DNA of 64,000 nt, taken from sequence record LR746311. One strand, 5' to 3'. Made by a program: the position numbers and the translations under genes. Positions 2,986-54,107 of this stretch are shown here, one piece after another. The notes below the pieces were generated by a model. The model was not told where the DNA came from. It was given only the letters and a program-made list of their open reading frames with translations, and did no database searches. Within the stretch, counting starts at the first letter, position 1, and the number at the start of each line of letters is the position of its first letter. Origin of the DNA: Shigella phage vB_SsoM_113.

Positions 2986-4164
2986 ATGAGCACAGTTTTT
3001 AATACAAATCCAGTTGATGTTTTAAAAGAACCTATGTTCTTCGGTTCAGGTCTTGGTATTGCGCGTTATGATATTCAACGCCATAAAGTTTTTGAAGATT
3101 TAACCGAAAAGCAATTGTCATTTTTCTGGCGTCCTGAAGAAGTAAACTTGATGATGGATGCTGCACAATTTAACAAGCTTCCCCAGTATCAGCAAGATAT
3201 TTTTACTAATAACCTGAAGTATCAATCACTTTTGGATAGCATTCAGGGTCGTGCACCGTCTGCTGTACTTATGTCGTTAATTTCAGACCCAAGTCTTGAT
3301 ACATGGGTTGCTACATGGACTTTTAGTGAAACTATTCACAGCCGTTCATATACTCATATCATGCGAAATCTTTATACTGATCCGTCAAAGGTATTTGATG
3401 AGATTGTATTAGATAAAGCTATTATGAAACGTGCTGAATCTATTGGTCGTTATTATGATGATGTTATTGAGAAAACTCGTGAATGGGAAAACGCAAAAGA
3501 AATTTTTAGGTGTTTTTCAGAGAATGAATATGATTTGGACGCATATTCAAATAGCCTTATGCATGTAGAAGAATGCAAATACGAACTAATGCGTTCTCTT
3601 TACCTTTGTCTGCATGTAATCAACGCATTGGAAGCTATTCGTTTTTATGTATCTTTCGCATGTACCTTTAACTTCCATAAGAACATGGAAATCATGGAAG
3701 GTAATGCCAAGATTATGAAGTTCATTGCACGTGATGAGCAGCTTCACCTTAAAGGCACCCAATATATTATTCGTCAACTTCAACTTGGCACTGATGGTGA
3801 TGAATGGGTTAAAATCGCCCAAGAGTGTGAACAAGAAGCAGTTGATATTTTCATGGAAGTTAACCGTCAAGAAAAAGACTGGGCAGTTCATTTATTTAAA
3901 GATGGTGATGTTCCTGGATTAAATACAAATAGCATGTGGAGCTTTATTGATTACTTAACCGTATCTCGTATGAAACAGTGCGGTCTTCCATGCCCAATTA
4001 CCGATGCTCCGGTTAAACATCCGTATCCTTGGATTCGTGAATATCTTAATTCTGATAATGTTCAATCCGCGCCACAAGAAGTAGAACTGTCATCTTACCT
4101 TGTAGCACAGATTGATAATGATGTTGATGATAAAGTTATGATGAGTTTTAAAAAATATTTTTAA
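2986..4164 (+). CDS. nrdB: ribonucleotide reductase small subunit, uninterrupted (no intron)
   Basis: 392-aa continuous ORF; ATG 2986; follows nrdA after a 51-bp gap. Confidence 0.95.
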   Translation: MSTVFNTNPVDVLKEPMFFGSGLGIARYDIQRHKVFEDLTEKQLSFFWRPEEVNLMMDAAQFNKLPQYQQDIFTNNLKYQSLLDSIQGRAPSAVLMSLISDPSLDTWVATWTFSETIHSRSYTHIMRNLYTDPSKVFDEIVLDKAIMKRAESIGRYYDDVIEKTREWENAKEIFRCFSENEYDLDAYSNSLMHVEECKYELMRSLYLCLHVINALEAIRFYVSFACTFNFHKNMEIMEGNAKIMKFIARDEQLHLKGTQYIIRQLQLGTDGDEWVKIAQECEQEAVDIFMEVNRQEKDWAVHLFKDGDVPGLNTNSMWSFIDYLTVSRMKQCGLPCPITDAPVKHPYPWIREYLNSDNVQSAPQEVELSSYLVAQIDNDVDDKVMMSFKKYF

Positions 4165-4191
4165 GGAGTGGGCCGCAAGGCCCATTTTATT
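4163..4191 (+). terminator. GC hairpin GGGCC-GCAA-GGCCC plus U-rich tail between nrdB and denA (or split-SD element)
   Basis: AAGGAG 4163-4168; stem 4170-4174/4179-4183 with GNRA loop GCAA; ATTTTATT 4184-4191; denA ATG 4192. Confidence 0.5.
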
Positions 4192-5779
<1,588 letters not shown>

Positions 5780-5782
5780 GCT

Positions 5783-5812
5783 GTTTACAAGTCCCTCGTG
5801 TTGTGTTACAGT
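5783..5812 (+). promoter_or_regulatory. T4 early-type promoter (GTTTAC -35), copy 1 of repeated cassette
   Basis: GTTTAC 5783-5788, 18-nt spacer, TACAGT 5807-5812 (weak -10). Confidence 0.5.
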
Positions 5813-5835
5813 AGTTTTACTGACATAACATGAGG
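5794..5835 (+). promoter_or_regulatory. RNA hairpin that would sequester the alc Shine-Dalgarno
   Basis: 13-bp stem incl. 2 G.U: 5794-5806 pairs 5823-5835; GAGGA at 5832-5836; loop holds -10 region. Confidence 0.5.
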
Positions 5836-5843
5836 ACTTTATG

Positions 5844-6347
5844 ATGGATTTGCAGCTTATTACTACTGAGATGGTCGTTGAAGCATACGGTGATACTACA
5901 GATGGGATTTCTGTATTTAAAGGAAATCGTCGAGTTGGATATATCACCGATCTTAAGAAAGATTTAGCTAAGCAAGTCAAGCGGAAAACGACCATTAAAG
6001 AATATCGAAATCGTCGTCTTGAGCAAGCCCGTGATATGCTTCCTGATGCAGTTGAGGAGATGAAAGTCTTTTTAGAAAATCAGCTTGCAAAATATGATTG
6101 TGATGTGTTCATTAATCAGACTCAACCTAATGTTCATATCAATAACTGTAAATGCTATATCATCGTTAATCCTTTGACTGGAAAACATCGTCTTGGAATT
6201 AGTAATCCAAATCGTAGCGCATCGGATATGGCAGAAGATGTTGAGGCATGCTTTAAAATTTCTAAATCTCCTGCTGAACATCATATTTTAATTAACGGTC
6301 TTTCTCAAGACGATATTATAGAGGTTATTAAAACTTTATGCAATTAA
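5844..6347 (+). CDS. alc: Alc (host transcription shutoff protein)
   Basis: 167 aa from ATG 5844 (MDLQLITTE...); immediately downstream of rnlA as in T4. Confidence 0.8.
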   Translation: MDLQLITTEMVVEAYGDTTDGISVFKGNRRVGYITDLKKDLAKQVKRKTTIKEYRNRRLEQARDMLPDAVEEMKVFLENQLAKYDCDVFINQTQPNVHINNCKCYIIVNPLTGKHRLGISNPNRSASDMAEDVEACFKISKSPAEHHILINGLSQDDIIEVIKTLCN

Positions 6348-9107: not shown

Positions 9108-9137
9108 GTTTACTTTATGGTAGAGTTGTGATATTAT
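9108..9137 (+). promoter_or_regulatory. T4 early-type promoter
   Basis: GTTTAC 9108-9113, 18-nt spacer, TATTAT 9132-9137; upstream of ORF at 9168. Confidence 0.55.
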
Positions 9138-9167
9138 AGCTATACCAAAACAAATGAGGAAATTGAA

Positions 9168-9695
9168 ATGAGCGAATGGTTTGAAGAAGATAAGGTTTAT
9201 CGCTTTAAAGCTGGATATAAAGATATTTTTAATGAAACTTGCGGGGCTAATAAACGAATTGCCCAGTTTATTGGGGAAAATTCATTTAAAGTAAAAATAG
9301 ATCCTGCGAAAAATGTTATTAGCATTAAACGCGAAATTGATGACCGCTGGTATAAAGCTGTTGATGTAATGGGCGAATCCTATAAAGTTAGCCCGCTATT
9401 TTCAATTGCTTATATGTTAGAATATTCTTTTTTCGAAGAAGTTCAAAAAGATGATTCTGTCAGTAAATTTGAAATTAAAACTGATAAAGAAATTAAGTGG
9501 AAAGTAGTAGGTATTACTGGTTGTATGTTTTATATCTATGCTCAAACTGATACGAAGGAAGAAGCTAAAAAGAAAGCTCTAGAATATCTTGAAGAGTATG
9601 AAGAAGGCCCGGTAATGATTACACAAGATGCTGAATTAGTTTCTGTCAAATTAGTTAAAAACGTTGAAAGTAAGGAGCTGGGATCAACATGCTAA
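9168..9695 (+). CDS. hypothetical protein
   Basis: 175-aa ORF; ATG 9168 after GAGGA; early promoter upstream. Confidence 0.55.
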   Translation: MSEWFEEDKVYRFKAGYKDIFNETCGANKRIAQFIGENSFKVKIDPAKNVISIKREIDDRWYKAVDVMGESYKVSPLFSIAYMLEYSFFEEVQKDDSVSKFEIKTDKEIKWKVVGITGCMFYIYAQTDTKEEAKKKALEYLEEYEEGPVMITQDAELVSVKLVKNVESKELGSTC

Positions 9696-12797: not shown

Positions 12798-12827
12798 GTT
12801 TACAGTATGGTTCCTTTGTGATAGTAT
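12798..12827 (+). promoter_or_regulatory. T4 early-type promoter with SD-sequestering hairpin
   Basis: GTTTAC 12798-12803, 18-nt spacer, TAGTAT 12822-12827; stem 12812-12819/12840-12847 overlaps AAGGAG 12843-12848. Confidence 0.45.
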
Positions 12828-12854
12828 TATCTTACACAAACAAAGGAGAATAAA

Positions 12855-13187
12855 ATGAAAACGATTAATCTGAACGCTGCAGTTAAAACTAAATGCTTCA
12901 ATGGTAAATATGATGAAACTATGTGGTTCTTAATGGCAGTTGAAGGTGATATTATTGAAGTAGAAACAACAGAAGGTATGGGAACAGATTTCACCTTTAC
13001 AATTCAAGTTCATAATTTCTTTACTGGTTGGATTTATGAATTGAATACAGTAATCGTTGGAAAAATTGAACAAAATGAATTGGGTGAATGGTATTATGTT
13101 ACAGCTCGCCAACGTGCCGAACGCTTAATTGAGAAGATGAAAAAAGTTGGTAAACTTGACATGCAGCACTGGAAAGTAGTAAAATAA
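12855..13187 (+). CDS. hypothetical protein
   Basis: 110-aa ORF; ATG 12855 after AAGGAG. Confidence 0.55.
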   Translation: MKTINLNAAVKTKCFNGKYDETMWFLMAVEGDIIEVETTEGMGTDFTFTIQVHNFFTGWIYELNTVIVGKIEQNELGEWYYVTARQRAERLIEKMKKVGKLDMQHWKVVK

Positions 13188-13189
13188 TT

Positions 13190-13229
13190 GTTTACTTTGG
13201 TACAGGATATGATATTATATACCTGTACC
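13190..13229 (+). promoter_or_regulatory. T4 early-type promoter with -10 inside a perfect 8-bp inverted repeat
   Basis: GTTTAC 13190-13195, 17-nt spacer, TATTAT 13213-13218; GGTACAGG 13199-13206 / CCTGTACC 13222-13229. Confidence 0.55.
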
Positions 13230-13254
13230 GCAATTAAACATCTTGGAGAATAAA

Positions 13255-13620
13255 ATGAACTACATCAACTTTGAACGTAAATATGTTTCTAACGGTATTG
13301 CAGGTTCTATTGATACTATCTGTCTTTGGAAACATCAAAATGGATCAGTATGCGAAATTGAACAGTATATGACTCCTAACTACGTTTATATGCGATTTGA
13401 AAATGGCATCACGGTTTCAATCACAATGGAAGGTTCCAACTTCAAAATCGCTTTGGATGATGATTTTCGTCAACGCGATTTAGGGACTCATCCTTGCTGG
13501 AATGGTGTTAATCGCAAGCTTCTGGTTAAAACTTGGATTCGTCATATTCTGAGTAACAGAGCTAAACCTGAGCATCTTGAAGCAATCTTTGATGTAGTTA
13601 TTAACGAATTTGATATTTAA
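13255..13620 (+). CDS. hypothetical protein
   Basis: ATG 13255 after GGAG; ORF track start 13243 is TTG. Confidence 0.55.
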   Translation: MNYINFERKYVSNGIAGSIDTICLWKHQNGSVCEIEQYMTPNYVYMRFENGITVSITMEGSNFKIALDDDFRQRDLGTHPCWNGVNRKLLVKTWIRHILSNRAKPEHLEAIFDVVINEFDI

Positions 13621-17388: not shown

Positions 17389-17396
17389 TATAAATA
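17389..17396 (+). promoter_or_regulatory. late promoter TATAAATA upstream of alt
   Basis: Exact TATAAATA 24 nt upstream of alt ATG. Confidence 0.6.
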
Positions 17397-17419
17397 GAAT
17401 AAACACTAGAGAGGATATG

Positions 17420-19513
17420 ATGGAACTCATTACAGAATTATTTGACGAAGATACTACTCTTCCGATTACAAACTTAAATCCAAAGAAGAAAATACCGCAA
17501 ATTTTTTCAGTTCATGTTGATGACGCAATTGAACAACCAGGTTTTCGTTTATGTACCTATACATCTGGAGGTGATACTAATCGCGATTTAAAAATGGGCG
17601 ATAAAATGATGCATATTGTTCCTTTTACATTAACTGCTAAAGGTTCAATTGCTAAATTAAAAGGTCTCGGTCCAAGCCCAATTAATTACATCAATTCAGT
17701 TTTTACTGTTGCGATGCAGACGATGCGTCAGTATAAAATTGATGCATGTATGCTCCGTATTCTTAAGTCTAAAACTGCTGGTCAAGCTCGTCAAATTCAA
17801 CTTATTGCTGATAGACTTATCCGTAGTCGTTCAGGTGGCAGATACGTCCTTCTTAAGGAACTCTGGGATTATGATAAAAAGTATGCATATATTCTTATAC
17901 ATCGCAAAAATGTATCATTAGAAGACATTCCAGGAGTTCCAGAAATTAGTACCGAGCTCTTTACTAAAGTTGAATCGAAGGTCGGTGATGTTTATATCAA
18001 TAAAGATACTGGAGCTCAAGTAACTAAAAATGAGGCAATTGCTGCATCTATTGCGCAAGAAAATGATAAACGTTCTGACCAAGCGGTAATCGTTAAAGTT
18101 AAAATTTCCCGTAGAGCAATTGCACAAAGTCAGTCATTGGAATCTTCTAGATTTGAAAGTGAATTATTCCAGAAGTATGAATCTACCGCAGCTAATTTCA
18201 ATAAACCTGCTACAGCTCCTTTAATTCCCGAAGCAGAAGAAATGAAGCTTGGAATTAATTCATTAGCTTCTAAAACTAAGGCAGCAAAAATTATTGCTGA
18301 AGGAACTGCAGATGAACTTCATTATGACTATAAATTCTTTTCAAAAAGTGAGGTTAATGAAGTTTCTGAAAAAATTAAAGATGTAATTCTTAATGCGATT
18401 AAAAATGAACCAACTACTTCAATAAAATGTTTAGAGAAATACGCAGCAGCTGTTAATCAATTATTTGAAGAATATAAAGATAACTGGCTTGATAAACATA
18501 ATAAAACTCGTAAAGGACAAACAGATGAAGTCTGGGAAGAAATAACTAAAAATTCCTGGAACGCAGCAAAAACTAAATTCCTCAAACGAATGATTTATAG
18601 CTTTTCCGGAATTGGTGCAGGTCCAATGATTGATATTACTATTGCCCGTGATGGTTCTAAATATACTCCATCACAAAAGCGCGGCATTAGAGAGTATTGT
18701 GGTTCAGGATATACTGACATCAATAATCTTCTTTTGGGTCGTTACAATCCAGAACGATATGATGTAATGAGTGAAAAAGAAATTGAATCTGCTATAAATA
18801 ACTTAGATTCAGCTTTTGAAAACGGTGACCGTATACCAGAAGGCATTACAGTTTATCGTGCTCAAAGCATGACTGCTCCTATATACGAAGCATTAGTTAA
18901 AAATAAAGTATTCTATTTCAGAAATTTTGTATCTACTTCTTTAACTCCTATCATTTTTGGACGTTTTGGAATTACACATGCTGGTATTGGTCTTTTAGAA
19001 CCAGAAGCTCGTAATGAATTGACAGTTGATAAAAATGAAGAAGGAATAACTATTAATCCAAACGAAATAAGAGCATATAAAGAAAATCCTGAATACGTTA
19101 AAGTTCAAATAGGATGGGCAATTGATGGAGCTCATAAAGTTAATGTTGTATATCCAGGAAGTCTCGGAATAGCAACAGAAGCTGAAGTTATTCTACCACG
19201 CGGATTGATGGTCAAAGTTAATAAAATAACTGATGCTTCTAATAATGACGGAACAACATCTAATAATACAAAACTCATTCAAGCTGAAGTTATGACTACG
19301 GAAGAACTCACCGAATCAGTAATTTATGACGGTGATCGTCTAATGGAAACTGGTGAAGTAGTTGCAATGACAGGTGATATTGAAATAGAAGACAGAGTTG
19401 ATTTTGCATCATTTGTTTCATCAAATGTTAAACAAAAAGTAGAATCATCTCTTGGAATTATTGCGTCTTGCATAGATATTGCAAACATGCCTTACAAGTT
19501 CGTTCAAGGATAA
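17420..19513 (+). CDS. alt: Alt-family ADP-ribosyltransferase (positional alt)
   Basis: 697 aa from ATG 17420 (MELITELF...); C-terminal R/S/E ART elements (YRAQ ... FVSTSL ... EAEVILPRG). Confidence 0.88.
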   Translation: MELITELFDEDTTLPITNLNPKKKIPQIFSVHVDDAIEQPGFRLCTYTSGGDTNRDLKMGDKMMHIVPFTLTAKGSIAKLKGLGPSPINYINSVFTVAMQTMRQYKIDACMLRILKSKTAGQARQIQLIADRLIRSRSGGRYVLLKELWDYDKKYAYILIHRKNVSLEDIPGVPEISTELFTKVESKVGDVYINKDTGAQVTKNEAIAASIAQENDKRSDQAVIVKVKISRRAIAQSQSLESSRFESELFQKYESTAANFNKPATAPLIPEAEEMKLGINSLASKTKAAKIIAEGTADELHYDYKFFSKSEVNEVSEKIKDVILNAIKNEPTTSIKCLEKYAAAVNQLFEEYKDNWLDKHNKTRKGQTDEVWEEITKNSWNAAKTKFLKRMIYSFSGIGAGPMIDITIARDGSKYTPSQKRGIREYCGSGYTDINNLLLGRYNPERYDVMSEKEIESAINNLDSAFENGDRIPEGITVYRAQSMTAPIYEALVKNKVFYFRNFVSTSLTPIIFGRFGITHAGIGLLEPEARNELTVDKNEEGITINPNEIRAYKENPEYVKVQIGWAIDGAHKVNVVYPGSLGIATEAEVILPRGLMVKVNKITDASNNDGTTSNNTKLIQAEVMTTEELTESVIYDGDRLMETGEVVAMTGDIEIEDRVDFASFVSSNVKQKVESSLGIIASCIDIANMPYKFVQG

Positions 19514-19516
19514 ATC

Positions 19517-21574
19517 ATGGAACTTATTACAGAATTATTTGACGGCGCTTCGGCGCCGGTTGTTAACTTAAATCCTAAGCATAAAATACCTCAAATTTTT
19601 GCTATTCAAGCCGGTGAAGAAAGCGTGCTTCCTGGATTTAGATTTTGTACATACACCTCTGGTGGTGATACAAATAAAAACGTTAAGCCAGGCGATAAAA
19701 TGATGCATATCGTAATGATAGGTGTCAATGAGAAACTATCATTAGTTAAACTTAAAAACTTGGGTGGAAATCCAATTGGTGTCATTAATGCCGTTTTTGA
19801 TACTGCTCTTCAAACAATGAAACAGTATAAAATTGACGCATGCCTATTCCGCGTACTAAAGAGTAAAACAAATGGCGCAGCTCGTCAAATGCAAGTTATT
19901 GCTGACCGTTTAGTACGTACTAAAGGAGCAGGTCGATATGTTCTTTTAAAAGAAATCTGGGATTATGATAAAAAGTATGCATATATTATGGTTTACCGTA
20001 AAAATGCCAATTTAGAAGACATTCCAGGTGTACCTCCTATTTCAACTGAGTTATTCACAAAAGTTGAATCAAAGGTTGGTGATGTTTATGTAGATGTTAA
20101 AACAGGTAATGCTGTTCCTAAAGCCGTTGCTGTGGCTGCTTCTATTGCTTTAGAAAATGATAAGCGCACGGATCAAGCTGTTATTCAGAAAACTAAAATT
20201 AGCCGTCGATTAGCAGCACAAGCTCAATATTCTACTGTCGATGCTTCACTTCAGGGTGATAGCTTCGCTGCCAAGAAATATCAAGAGTTTGAATCTAAAG
20301 TTCCGGTATATAAAGCAGAAGGACCAATGAACTCTGGTGTTATTCAGATTGGTTCCAACTTCAGCAAAGGAGCTATCGGTGGTATGAGAAGTGCTTCTCG
20401 TTTTAAATCTAACGATTATGAACTAGAAAGCTTCCGAAATCATATTGCATTGGCCCATGCACGTTTACGTGATCCGTCTATCAGACTGCAGAGCGATATA
20501 ACATATCAAGGTTCTCAAGAATATTTAAAGAATAAAGAATTTTTTGATTATAAAACCGATAAAATTTTGAGCGATCTCGCTGACATTAATATTTCTAATA
20601 GCTTTGATGTTATTAAGAAAATTGTCAATGATTTAGTTAAAGGTTCTAAAGCCGCACCAGACGAAAAGGTAGCTATTATTCAATTTGTCATGAATAGCAT
20701 TTATAAATTGATTAATGAATCTGCTGCTCAGGCATATGAATACGCAAGCACCGAAGTAACTCCAAAAGGATTAACTCAGTCTGAGTCTGATGTAATTGAA
20801 GATTATTGTGCAGATTCATATGTTGAAATGAACTCGTTCCTCTTGGGTAAACCAGATTCTACCCGTGAAGAATACATGGAACGAGCTATTAAACACATCG
20901 AGACGCTGGATTCTGCATTCGCCAAAGGATCAGTTCTTCCTCCAGGAACTACGCTTTATCGTGGGCAAGAAGTTACTTTTAAAACTTTACGTCATAATAT
21001 TGAAAATAAAATGTTCTATTTTAAGAACTTCGTATCAACATCGCTTAAACCAAATATCTTCGGTGAGCATGGTAAAAACTATATGGCTCTAGATGATTCA
21101 GGTGCAGTATTTTCTGGTGAAGGAGAAGGTTCTGTTGATGCTGAAGATTTAATGCATATGGGTAGTCATTCTGCATATGCTAATGAAGATGCTGAAGCTA
21201 GCGTAGGTATGGTAATTAAAGGGGCTGAGCGAATCAAAGTTATCGTTCCAGGTCATTTATCAGGATTTCCATCAGAAGCTGAAGTTATTCTACCACGTGG
21301 AATTTTGTTAAAGATTAATAAAGTAAGCACGTACATGATGAAAGAAACTGCTTATAACAAGTATCTAATCGAAGGCACAATCGTTCCTCCTTCTGAACAA
21401 TTAGAAGAATCAGTATATGATGGCGATCATCTAATGGAAACTGGTGAAGTTCGTCCAATGGCTAGGTTTAATCAATTCCTTGTAGAAGAATCAAAAGAAG
21501 AGGAAAACGAAGTTTCTCAAATCTTGGCTTCTTTGGTTAACATCAATGGAATGTCTAAAAAGTTCAAGATGTAG
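19517..21574 (+). CDS. second Alt-family ADP-ribosyltransferase (tandem paralogue)
   Basis: 685 aa (MELITELFDG...); conserved N-terminal region and C-terminal YRGQ ... FVSTSL ... EAEVILPRG; middle region diverged. Confidence 0.85.
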   Translation: MELITELFDGASAPVVNLNPKHKIPQIFAIQAGEESVLPGFRFCTYTSGGDTNKNVKPGDKMMHIVMIGVNEKLSLVKLKNLGGNPIGVINAVFDTALQTMKQYKIDACLFRVLKSKTNGAARQMQVIADRLVRTKGAGRYVLLKEIWDYDKKYAYIMVYRKNANLEDIPGVPPISTELFTKVESKVGDVYVDVKTGNAVPKAVAVAASIALENDKRTDQAVIQKTKISRRLAAQAQYSTVDASLQGDSFAAKKYQEFESKVPVYKAEGPMNSGVIQIGSNFSKGAIGGMRSASRFKSNDYELESFRNHIALAHARLRDPSIRLQSDITYQGSQEYLKNKEFFDYKTDKILSDLADINISNSFDVIKKIVNDLVKGSKAAPDEKVAIIQFVMNSIYKLINESAAQAYEYASTEVTPKGLTQSESDVIEDYCADSYVEMNSFLLGKPDSTREEYMERAIKHIETLDSAFAKGSVLPPGTTLYRGQEVTFKTLRHNIENKMFYFKNFVSTSLKPNIFGEHGKNYMALDDSGAVFSGEGEGSVDAEDLMHMGSHSAYANEDAEASVGMVIKGAERIKVIVPGHLSGFPSEAEVILPRGILLKINKVSTYMMKETAYNKYLIEGTIVPPSEQLEESVYDGDHLMETGEVRPMARFNQFLVEESKEEENEVSQILASLVNINGMSKKFKM

Positions 21575-21603
21575 TTTACAAGTCCATCGTGTTGTGTTAT
21601 AAT
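21574..21603 (+). promoter_or_regulatory. T4 early-type promoter, copy 2 of repeated cassette
   Basis: GTTTAC 21574-21579, 18-nt spacer, TATAAT 21598-21603. Confidence 0.55.
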
Positions 21604-21626
21604 AATCTTACTGACATAACATGAGG
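21584..21626 (+). promoter_or_regulatory. RNA hairpin that would sequester SD of ORF at 21635
   Basis: 5' arm 21584-21597 (one bulged A) pairs 21614-21626; GAGGA 21623-21627. Confidence 0.45.
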
Positions 21627-21634
21627 AACACAAA

Positions 21635-27444: not shown

Positions 27445-28193
27445 TGTTGTTTATCCTTCTCAATCAGTTTTAATACGAATCCGCGCTCAGCAGGAATCAT
27501 TTTCATTATTGAATTTAAGCTATAATTACTTTTTACGAGCGTGTGATTGATTTGATAAAAAGTAAATATTTCATCTGGGTTAACTAATAGCTTAAACACA
27601 TCTACTATATCAGTGTATTTTTTTACATACTTATTACAACACGACATATGCAGTGTTAAATTAATAGGATTCATTGCATCGAGAATTTTTTCTAATGTTT
27701 CTATCTCGATGGCGTCAACAAGTTCTATTTGACTCGATTCGCTAATTTCCTTCCAATCATACCACATTTCATCTACTTGAACAGAATGAATATTTTCAGT
27801 AATCATCTTTGCTTTATTTTCATAAAACTCAGAAGGAAACTTTAATTTAATTTTAACATTAGCTACATCAAAAACAGGTTCCTTTAATTCTTTTTGATAT
27901 ATTTCAAATGGAACTGTCTTTTCTTTTTTGCATTTTGGACATACAAATGTGACCGGTACTTTAGTTTTACCTATTGACCCTACAAATACCTGCAAAAATA
28001 TAAATGGTTGCCAAGTCTTCGGATAGTCTCCAAAATAATCGGCAATTAAATCAGCAATTATTTCTTTTTGTTCTTGCGGTGACCGATGTTCTATATCGTT
28101 TCGAACTAACAAAAAATCTCGATAATCTTCTACCGTAAATGGTTTAAAACGATGAACACCATCTGGTAATTTACAACGAATAATGTTTGCCAT
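27441..28193 (-). CDS. 51: baseplate hub assembly catalyst
   Basis: 250 aa; late promoter immediately upstream. Confidence 0.85.
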
Positions 28194-52556: not shown

Positions 52557-54107
52557 TTAGTAATGAATTTTAATAATATAGTTTAATGATATATTCCATG
52601 GTCTAGTTTCATAACCAATTAATCCTTCACGATTAAGTGTACCATGAGCATCTCTCGGTCCACCTAATTCAAATCCATCATTAGTGAAGTATGAAGCATT
52701 ATCCCAGTCGGAATATTTTCTAGTTCCAAGATATCCTTGATAAACTGACGCGCCAAATGGGCCTTCACTTCTGTTATATTCTCCCCAACCACCGGCGTGT
52801 TTATGGTATGACATTTGTTGTGCCTGGACACCACCAACATGCATTCCGTCACATCCTACACCAAGTCTATCCTTTCCATAACCATCTTGTCCTCGTTGAT
52901 TTAAAATATGACCGCCAGTACCGGCTCCTCTGACGAAAAGACCTCGCATATCAGGAATACCAGGATTATTCCAATCACCACCAAATCTTGATCCAACTAC
53001 GTTTCTATAATCAGGAAATTGGTCACCTGACACGGTTCCACCGTGACACATAATCCAACCTGGAGGTGCTGAATCACCCGCAAACATCATAATAGTTCCA
53101 ACTGGAACCCTTTCGGACGCATATCTTTCAGTGGCAACAGGTTGATCGCCATTTTTCCACATTCCACCGCGTGACCAAATTCCATTTGCTGTAAGATGGT
53201 CTAAATTTAAAGAACCATTAATAGTTTGTCCACCACGAGTATTAATTACATCTGCGTTCCATGCTAATGCTCCAGAGCTATCACCTTCAGGGGCAATACC
53301 GGCTTGCGTCGTTAATTTAACTACTCCACGCATAGAACCGGTAGCTCCTCGACCATTTAGTGTTTCACCTGTTACTGCAACACCACCCAAATTATTATTA
53401 ATTTCAGTCTGCGTTCCTAGGCGTATAACACCCTTATATTCATGTGTTGCAACAGAATTCATAAAGGTATACGGGGAAATTGCATATCCTTCGCGGAGAG
53501 TTCCTTGACGAATTTGTGCAACAGTAGATAATTGAACTACTCCTCTCACCGATTCTGTTGCAGTGTCTTCTGAAGGAGCTATTTGCGAAATTAATTTTAT
53601 TGCAAGTTTTTGGGTTTTTAGCGGAGTCATCGCAGTAGTATCATCAACTCCAGCCAAAGCTGCAGGTGTAGATGATATTTTAATAACCCCGTTTGATGAC
53701 TCAGACGAATATCTATTTTTGAACACATCGTCAGTGTGGTATTTCAGTTTTTGTGGTGTTATTGATGAATTATTATCTGAGCCTTTTAATGTTTCTTCAT
53801 TTGTTGAATAACGCGTTAAACCATATTTAGTTTCAGTAGCATTTGGATACAATAATCTTGTTGCTAATGTAGCTGGTGTAACGATTTTAGAATTATTAGT
53901 TCCATCTAAAACCTCTTGTTCTGACGCAATCATTGCTATTCCTTTAACTTCCATAGTTGCATCAGGAATACCATTTACGCCGATATTACTTATTTTTGAT
54001 AATGCAGACTGTACTGTCGTAACAGTGCCAGGAAAATTCGATCCAGTAGGATCGAATTTAACATATTTTGATTCATTTGATACGTGCTGATATGTATTGT
54101 TACTCAT
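52557..54107 (-). CDS. 12: short tail fibre protein
   Basis: 516 aa, Gly/Thr-rich. Confidence 0.9.

Follow-up and report, generated by a model that had tools for sequence, protein, structure and literature searches.

Organization of the rnlA-alc junction

The stretch of DNA analysed here (the window) comprises 64,000 nucleotides from Shigella phage vB_SsoM_113 (LR746311). It is a segment of a Tequatrovirus (T4-like) genome with 98% identity to ime09, LF73P3 and similar phages and 96% identity to T4, and early transcription in T4 runs in the same direction as the + strand of the window. The genes nrdB, denA, rnlA, alc, pseT.3, pseT.2, pseT.1 and pseT follow each other in this order, and the spacer between rnlA and alc measures 64 nt, equal to that in the T4 annotation. 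The 54-nt element that a preliminary description of the locus had placed behind the rnlA stop codon was recovered as an exact string at 5783-5836 on the + strand, in front of alc. Coordinates of the genes and elements are collected in Table 1.

Table 1. Genes, promoter elements and RNA structures at the alc junction and at the two other cassettes of the window
Feature	Position	Strand	Remarks
nrdB	2986-4164	+	
rnlA (gene 63, RNA ligase 1)	ORF 4619/4655-5779	+	stop TAA 5777-5779
alc	5841/5844-6347	+	start codons ATGATG 5841-5846; T4 annotation uses the second, 5844 (167-aa form)
Outer 5-bp helix	5781-5785/5843-5847	+	partly covers the alc AUGs
-35 GTTTACA, T4-type early promoter	5783-5789	+	invariant in all related junctions
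Hairpin 5' arm, within promoter spacer	5789-5806	+	minimum-energy structure; C5795 bulged
Anti-SD UCC(C)U, pairing with GAGGA	5792-5796	+	inside 5' arm
Extended -10 (TG 5804-5805, TACAGT 5807-5812)	5804-5812	+	TGnTAnnnT near-invariant in the alignment
Apical stem-loop CAGUA-GUUU-UACUG	5809-5822	+	overlaps -10 and start site
Predicted +1, A5819, 7 nt past -10	5819	+	about T4 coordinate 136300; placed by position rule
Hairpin 3' arm with alc SD GAGGA (5832-5836)	5823-5839	+	
Third cassette, before gene 30.8	12798-12857	+	sequence unrelated; GTTTACA; ATG 12855
Elements of the 30.8 cassette	anti-SD TTCCTTTG 12811-12818, -10 TAGTAT 12822-12827, SD AAGGAG 12843-12848	+	
Cassette copy 2	21574-21627	+	flanked by the second alt paralogue (stop 21572-21574) and alt.-3 (ATG 21635)
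Elements of copy 2	-35 21574-21579, -10 TATAAT 21598-21603, SD 21623-21627	+	
Predicted +1 of copy 2, A21610	21610	+	placed by position rule

Downstream of the junction, pseT.3 (i-spanin) begins with the ATG at 6338 and shares 10 nt with the 3' end of alc (stop codon 6345-6347). Should the spanin genes be translationally coupled to alc, silence of alc on read-through RNA would affect this coupling too. Upstream, the nrdB stop codon TAA (4162-4164) overlaps an SD-like AAGGAG (4163-4168), which is followed by a GC hairpin, GGGCCGCAAGGCCC (4170-4183), with TTTTATT, and then by the ATG at 4192 that starts a 136-aa denA; the denA start in the T4 annotation is the GTG at 4168 (144 aa). Because the GC hairpin and TTTTATT precede ATG 4192, denA has a terminator-like hairpin between its SD and AUG, with an opening cost of 15.3 kcal/mol (4162-4194). 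This layout recalls the split ribosome-binding sites of genes 38 and 25.

Early promoter and hairpin in front of alc

The early-type -35 sequence GTTTAC noted earlier at this site is present at 5783-5788 and belongs to a full T4 early-promoter signature. The pattern GTTTAC-N15-TGnTAnnnT has four matches in the window, where 0.05 would be expected; all four are on the + strand, and no shuffled sequence reached this number. The homologous site in the record of phage fPS-65 was annotated by another group as 'predicted early promoter'. The predicted transcription start falls in the 3' half of the apical stem, within the loop or 3' arm where it had been proposed to lie. The -10 of T4 is TATAGT, and the variant TACAGT of the window converts a U.G pair of the apical stem to C-G.

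The folding check suggested in the preliminary description returned a hairpin at 5789-5839 with a predicted energy of -28.6 kcal/mol (z = -5.96), and none of 200 shuffled sequences folded as well (repeated with 500 shuffles). In this minimum-energy structure of 22 bp, 5789-5794 pair with 5834-5839, C5795 is bulged, 5796-5806 pair with 5823-5833, and a 2-nt internal loop UA leads to an apical stem (5809-5813/5818-5822) with the loop GUUU. The 13-bp stem 5794-5806/5823-5835 described previously is real, consisting of 11 Watson-Crick and two G.U pairs; it does not represent the whole hairpin, being a sub-structure or slipped register of the larger one. The placement of the alc GAGGA within the 3' arm was correct. 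A terminator scan called no terminator at the alc site. The Rfam 15 covariance models gave no match at E <= 1 for this copy of the element; near the second copy their sole match was a chance miRNA model, away from the element. RegB cleavage at alc was set aside as a possible role, the SD of Tequatrovirus alc being GAGGA, without GGAG.

A second copy upstream of alt.-3

The element had been described as one copy of a repeat, and a second copy with 49 of 54 positions identical is indeed found 15.8 kb away in the window (Table 1). The similarity extends exactly from the first base of the -35 to the last base of the SD. The hairpin of copy 2 is weaker (-17.8 kcal/mol, z -3.2 to -3.4), and its -10 is a perfect TATAAT. 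The ORF that follows encodes 96 amino acids and is named alt.-3 in the T2, RB51 and T4 records.

In T4, the alc and alt.-3 cassettes are identical at 53 of 54 positions, whereas the orthologous alt.-3 cassettes of T4 and the window share 50 of 54. Paralogous copies that resemble each other more than orthologues are the signature of gene conversion between the two sites, and the sequences thus point to recombination or gene conversion as the process that homogenises the pair. The alc site has no associated indel. Around alt.-3, the presence of the remnants alt.-1 and alt.-2 distinguishes T4 from the window.

The window carries tandem Alt (ADP-ribosyltransferase) paralogues at 17417-19513 and 19517-21574, which are 698 and 685 aa long and 41% identical, with a late promoter TATAAATA at 17389 before the first. 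T4 has one alt, and the remnants alt.-1 and alt.-2 stand in place of the second paralogue.

Conservation and covariation of the hairpin

Alc was found in more than 1100 phage records, with a gap in identity between Tequatrovirus (at least 95%) and all others (below 60%). The rnlA-alc junctions of the window, 11 further named phages and 41 IMG/VR loci were compared. In Tevenvirinae, Bragavirus and PSTCR6 the spacer measures 57-64 nt, and GTTTACA lies 0-6 nt past the rnlA stop codon. Positions G1, T2, T4, A5, C6 and A7 of the -35 are invariant in the alignment, T22 G23 n T25 A26 nnn T30 show little or no variation, and columns 36-37, the TA of the predicted start, reach a conservation of at least 90%.

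A long hairpin masking the SD (type A) is predicted in at least eight genera, namely Tequatro-, Gelderland-, Karam-, Jiaoda-, Braga-, Dhaka-, Winkler- and Roskildevirus, and in several further IMG/VR lineages, with z values of the minimum-energy hairpins from -2.6 to -6.2. In all of these the 5' arm directly follows GTTTACA and lies entirely between -35 and -10, and the SD forms the 3' arm; in eight lineages, its pairing partners are located 0-10 nt past the -35. SD and anti-SD vary together (GAGGA/TCCTC, GGAGA/TCTCC, GGGGA/TCCCC and GAGAGG/CCTCTC), and the stems otherwise differ by lineage.

Attempts to fold whole spacers with MAFFT and RNAalifold gave no consensus structure because the register of the SD shifts between genera, and trimming of the ends left the register unfixed. 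A covariance model seeded with eleven 54-nt sequences aligned most lineages; its alignment was rejected for pair counts, as it mis-registered Tequatrovirus owing to the bulged C and mixed in minus-strand matches, and the counts were therefore made on a curated subset and on the gapless seed. In the curated subset of 26 unique stems, 89% of the cells over 13 rungs are canonical, and rungs 3, 4, 6, 7, 8, 10 and 11 each show 8-15 double (compensatory) changes. The first 10 rungs are 95% paired, compared with 40-50% when the 3' arms are slid and 67 +/- 3% (maximum 78%) when the 3' arms are dealt among the sequences. The gapless alignment of 11 sequences is 96.5% paired, against 35-52% for slid controls, with changes on both sides in 8 of the 13 pairs and a covariation score of 0.49 versus 0.16 that none of 500 shuffles attained. 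The register of each 3' arm had been set by folding, which fits one degree of freedom per sequence and leaves all other pairs free. These comparisons support an anti-SD:SD pairing that is kept by compensatory changes in at least eight genera.

The promoter is also kept in Mosigvirus and in L056/L057, where the only hairpin is a small one inside the spacer, which leaves the SD free. In PSTCR6, L038/L054 and L043, GTTTACA is followed by a hairpin of 12-13 bp that encloses the -10 and whose 3' end stops 1-4 nt short of the SD (type B). The unmasked SD in these groups indicates that masking is dispensable, and the type-B hairpins, which leave out the SD, suggest that the hairpin may have a role besides masking of the ribosome-binding site. 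At the junction between alt and alt.-3, the SD-masking form occurs only in Tequatrovirus, and the form with the small spacer hairpin is found in Gaprivervirus, Mosigvirus, Karamvirus and one Klebsiella phage. The alc and alt.-3 cassettes of Mosigvirus show 0.75-0.78 identity. Given this likeness of cassettes within a genus, one cassette type seems to have replaced the other in Tequatrovirus, and the replacement seems to have gone in the opposite direction in Mosigvirus.

The small spacer hairpin has a consensus of about CCACAAGGA(T/C)GTGG with an AAGGA-like loop, and its 3' arm runs into TGn. It occurs in L008, L041, L056, L057 and L063-L066 and at the T4 promoters before rIIA.1, nrdC.4 and ndd.6, and its stem covaries between genera (CACCA/TGGTG, ACACA/TGTGT, GCAC/GTGC, CCAC/GTGG). 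A different layout is present at the alc junction of three IMG/VR loci with Alc 55-56% identical, L030, L031 and L058 (the last being UViG_2706795394_000001, 171541 bp). There the -35 (GTGTACA) is in the loop of a GC-rich hairpin AAGGGG...CCCCTT. Downstream of the predicted start, the SD is covered by a local hairpin of its own, GGTTCCATCA/TGATGAGGACC, which would thus be present in promoter-initiated RNA too. The match to Alc is broken up in all three and extends over about 740 nt.

Predicted masking of the alc ribosome-binding site

According to the preliminary description, read-through RNA from rnlA would occlude the alc SD and a transcript starting at the promoter would leave it free. Both halves of this proposal agree with the calculated cost of opening the region from SD to AUG, which is 13.3 kcal/mol in upstream-initiated RNA and 3.7-4.2 kcal/mol in RNA starting at A5819. 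For alt.-3 the corresponding predicted values are 8.2 kcal/mol in read-through and 3.2 kcal/mol in promoter-initiated RNA. Among 85 candidate starts in the window, the ribosome-binding site of alc is the most masked, and that of alt.-3 ranks fifth. The models thus support an early promoter embedded in a hairpin that masks the alc ribosome-binding site on read-through RNA, and Alc is probably made only from transcripts starting at its own promoter. A mapped 5' end, structure probing or a translation measurement for the alc site was not found in the literature, nor was a genome-wide set of transcription starts for T4, and a T4 omics paper yielded nothing particular to alc.

We consider it likely that the cassette works as an autonomous unit of expression, with its sigma-70 early promoter lying inside a hairpin that masks the ribosome-binding site. 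Upstream-initiated RNA would consist of delayed-early or middle transcripts running through nrdB-denA-rnlA. The middle promoters PnrdB, PI-TevIII and PnrdA have been mapped on the alc strand (PMC2988021); Rnl1 and Pnk, whose genes flank alc, belong to the delayed-early class, and early promoters cease to act after 2-3 min (PMC3014915). With middle promoters mapped upstream and delayed-early genes on either side, RNA from upstream is expected at alc. A late promoter for rnlA, by which alc would lie downstream of late genes, found no support, no TATAAATA being present on the + strand before 11776; the sources of upstream RNA would be the middle and delayed-early transcripts.

In read-through RNA, the pyrimidine-rich anti-SD just 3' of the -35 would be made first and would pair with the alc SD as soon as this emerges, giving a local hairpin of about 50 nt that excludes the 30S subunit. 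Since the predicted start at about A5819 is downstream of the anti-SD, RNA from the cassette's own promoter would carry a free SD and be translated. With the SD masked on all other RNA, Alc synthesis would follow its own immediate-early promoter and be off within minutes, and read-through RNA would still serve the downstream genes pseT.3-pseT while alc is silent. The same cassette would operate at alt.-3, downstream of two late-transcribed alt genes. That there is an advantage in confining Alc synthesis to the first minutes is conjecture.

Relation to known regulatory hairpins

The site had been likened to the T4 lysozyme and soc genes, and the same geometry is predicted here, with an early promoter instead of a late one. 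In T4 e, soc, 49 and I-TevI (and in I-TevII/III, Aeh1 mobE and segB), the SD and/or AUG is buried on upstream-initiated transcripts; in the e/soc/49/I-TevI type the promoter lies in the hairpin region, and its own transcripts, without the 5' arm, are translated (PMC3014915). The predicted fold and the covariation likewise place the SD and start of alc in a stable helix of upstream RNA, with the -10 of the promoter in the loop and the putative start positioned so that own transcripts would lack the 5' arm. The promoters of the e/soc/49/I-TevI type are gp55-dependent late promoters (TATAAATA) giving late-only translation, whereas that of alc is of the early sigma-70 type, for which early-only translation is predicted, and the anti-SD of the alc cassette sits in the -35/-10 spacer itself. 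A review of 2010 lists e, soc, 49, I-TevI and other homing-endonuclease genes, all with late promoters, and includes neither alc nor an early-promoter case (PMC3014915); Liebig and Rueger 1989 and Miller et al. 1994/2003 may describe the alc hairpin.

The anatomy of the element corresponds to that of the promoter-early stem-loop (PeSL) cassettes of T4-like phages (Arbiol 2010; Comeau 2014; PMC2839356, PMC4122927), which have been reported for the PST/T4 pair with the promoter consensus TTTACW-N17-TAYWAT. Both are stop-to-ATG intergenic units, repeated in the genome and serving as recombination substrates, in which a strong sigma-70-like promoter is combined with a stem-loop that overlaps -10 or fits between -35 and -10, and in which the SD comes at the 3' end; at alc, the 64-nt stop-to-ATG unit, the stem-loop associated with the promoter and the signs of repetition and recombination were all found. 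However, PeSL stem-loops have been read, and put to the test, as terminators or attenuators only, with no discussion of translation (PMC2839356). Moreover, the PST/T4 paper draws the PeSL stem-loop upstream of the promoter, whereas the 3' arm at alc is the SD, and the alc site has no U-tract and lies in a block of conserved synteny (rnlA-alc) and not in a hot spot of indels. A Rho-independent terminator shares with the alc hairpin a stable stem directly after a stop codon but differs in its GC-rich stem with an immediate U-tract; the alc hairpin has A-U-rich basal pairs and no conserved U-tract, encloses a functional-looking promoter and ends in an SD. Predicted structure and anatomy together support an alc cassette of PeSL type that would work like the e/soc/49/I-TevI hairpins, with an early promoter.

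Alternative explanations for the hairpin

Following the published reading of PeSLs, the hairpin could be a transcription attenuator, insulator or 3'-end stabiliser, with the SD overlap secondary: polymerases coming from rnlA would be stopped or paused, or the 3' end of the rnlA mRNA protected, and alc would be driven by its own promoter. This would fit the PeSL stem-loops of RB49 and phi1, which lie between -35 and -10 or overlap -10; in a transcriptional fusion, such stem-loops lowered the expression of downstream lacZ, one of them in the manner of a strong terminator (PMC2839356). At L038, L043 and PSTCR6 and at the window promoters 9108 and 13191, too, hairpins surround the -10 and leave out the SD, and the Tequatrovirus alc stem can be read as ending in GGAC, followed by UUUAU. 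Yet the 8 nt past the stem contain only 0-4 U, with a longest run of at most two (19 lineages), and without a conserved U-tract the hairpin is not a classical terminator. The basal pairs, too, are often A-U, and what covariation preserves is specifically the anti-SD:SD pairing. Attenuation as the main role is considered unlikely, although the hairpin may attenuate transcription without a U-tract; it would be compatible with masking of the SD rather than exclusive. A site for RNase III or another double-strand RNase could allow the message to be cut between rnlA and alc, as happens in T7 early mRNA, and cleavage would then activate or destroy the alc ribosome-binding site on read-through RNA. 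The Tequatrovirus hairpin, with about 22 stacked pairs, a bulge and an internal loop, is in the size range of RNase III substrates. Most other genera, however, have an uninterrupted stem of 9-13 bp with a 20-nt loop, which is too short, the hairpin of copy 2 is much weaker, and T4 growth is not known to depend on RNase III. The enzyme could be envisaged to act on the long Tequatrovirus stem alone, and as a general explanation such processing is highly improbable.

The inverted repeat around the -10 might instead act in DNA, as a cruciform, in promoter modulation or as a recombination hot spot spreading promoter cassettes, with RNA folding a by-product. The resemblance of the cassettes would fit this: the T4 copies are homogenised (53/54, closer than the 50/54 of the alt.-3 orthologues in T4 and the window), the Mosigvirus alc and alt.-3 cassettes are alike, and recombination takes place through PeSLs (PMC2839356, PMC4122927). 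In genera other than Tequatrovirus the stems are almost all Watson-Crick and strand-symmetric, so that sense and antisense folds are equally stable there and the comparison of the two is informative for Tequatrovirus only; in that genus, two to three G.U pairs make the sense RNA 8-9 kcal/mol stabler than the antisense. Recombination would account for the repeat but not for the hairpin, and an element acting in DNA would not explain why the SD forms the 3' arm across lineages or why SD and anti-SD change together, which leaves this explanation little room. Translational coupling, by which alc would be silent on polycistronic RNA unless a ribosome finishing rnlA opens the hairpin, draws on the position of the rnlA stop codon, 0-6 nt before the -35 in every lineage, which brings the terminating ribosome near the base of the stem. 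Judged from general ribosome footprint data, a ribosome at the rnlA stop should unwind the RNA to about 5785-5787, which would open the outer helix but not the main stem beginning at 5789, and in genera where the stop overlaps the -35 (TAGTTTACA) the stem begins just past that reach. Coupling is accordingly a very improbable account of the site.

Recurrence of the design in the window and in T4

Masking of the ribosome-binding site by a hairpin around an early promoter recurs elsewhere. The design is present at three of the six early promoters of the window with a nearby gene start (alc, alt.-3 and 30.8). Assignment of the ORF at 12855 to gene 31 was rejected; from T4 coordinate 130253 it is 30.8. 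Over the whole genome of T4, 37 candidate early-promoter cassettes were evaluated, and nine of them (those of alc, alt.-3, ndd.4, nrdC.8, regB, modB, 30.8, e.8 and denV) differ by at least 7 kcal/mol between read-through and promoter-initiated RNA. Strongly masked ribosome-binding sites are enriched at promoter-proximal starts in T4 (9/33 vs 21/219, Fisher p = 0.008), as are anti-SD tetramers in early-promoter spacers (8/29 vs 2.3 +/- 1.4 in shuffles).

T4 is a textbook case of temporal gene control, and to our knowledge a promoter inside a hairpin is a device known in this phage for late genes only. We suggest tentatively, giving it slightly less than an even chance, that about one T4 early promoter in four, together with the alc promoter of most Tevenvirinae genera, acts as an early-only translational switch, that many PeSL stem-loops are translational insulators and that these units are copied intact between loci. 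If true, the anti-SD in the spacer would silence the downstream gene on all transcripts but the promoter's own, and immediate-early and delayed-early expression would differ at a post-transcriptional level as well. It would help to account for the restriction of toxic takeover functions (Alc, RegB, ModB) to the first minutes and show how the phage can silence a gene translationally yet transcribe through it to downstream genes. The strong conservation of the rnlA-alc junction across genera would receive a testable reason, PeSLs, published as mobile promoter cassettes, would be reinterpreted, and synthetic biology would gain a compact, portable part of about 55 nt for expression from the adjacent promoter only, insulated from read-through.

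At the GTTTAC-type promoters at 9108-9170 and 13191-13257, the inverted repeats (TGGTAGAG/CTATACCA and GGTACAGG/CCTGTACC) enclose the -10 and not the SD, and the cost of opening the SD is equal in the long and the short RNA, which suggests that hairpins around the -10 have there some role other than masking the ribosome-binding site. A second pair of near-identical cassettes with a built-in anti-SD is found in T4 (AF158101) at 53885-53942 (nrdC.8) and 166749-166806 (ndd.4), where GTTC(C/T)TC pairs with GGAGGAAC. The annotated start of T4 ndd.4, 166764, falls inside the SD, and the ATG at 166749 has a better SD spacing. The window further contains divergent starts at 28193 (- strand) and 28244 (+ strand), by position those of T4 genes 26 and 51. 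They share the palindrome GCTCCTTT...TATAAATA...AAAGGAGC, in which the two SDs pair with each other around late-promoter cores, with opening costs of 9.7 and 9.0 kcal/mol, and the site is weakly matched by the covariance model of the alc hairpin.
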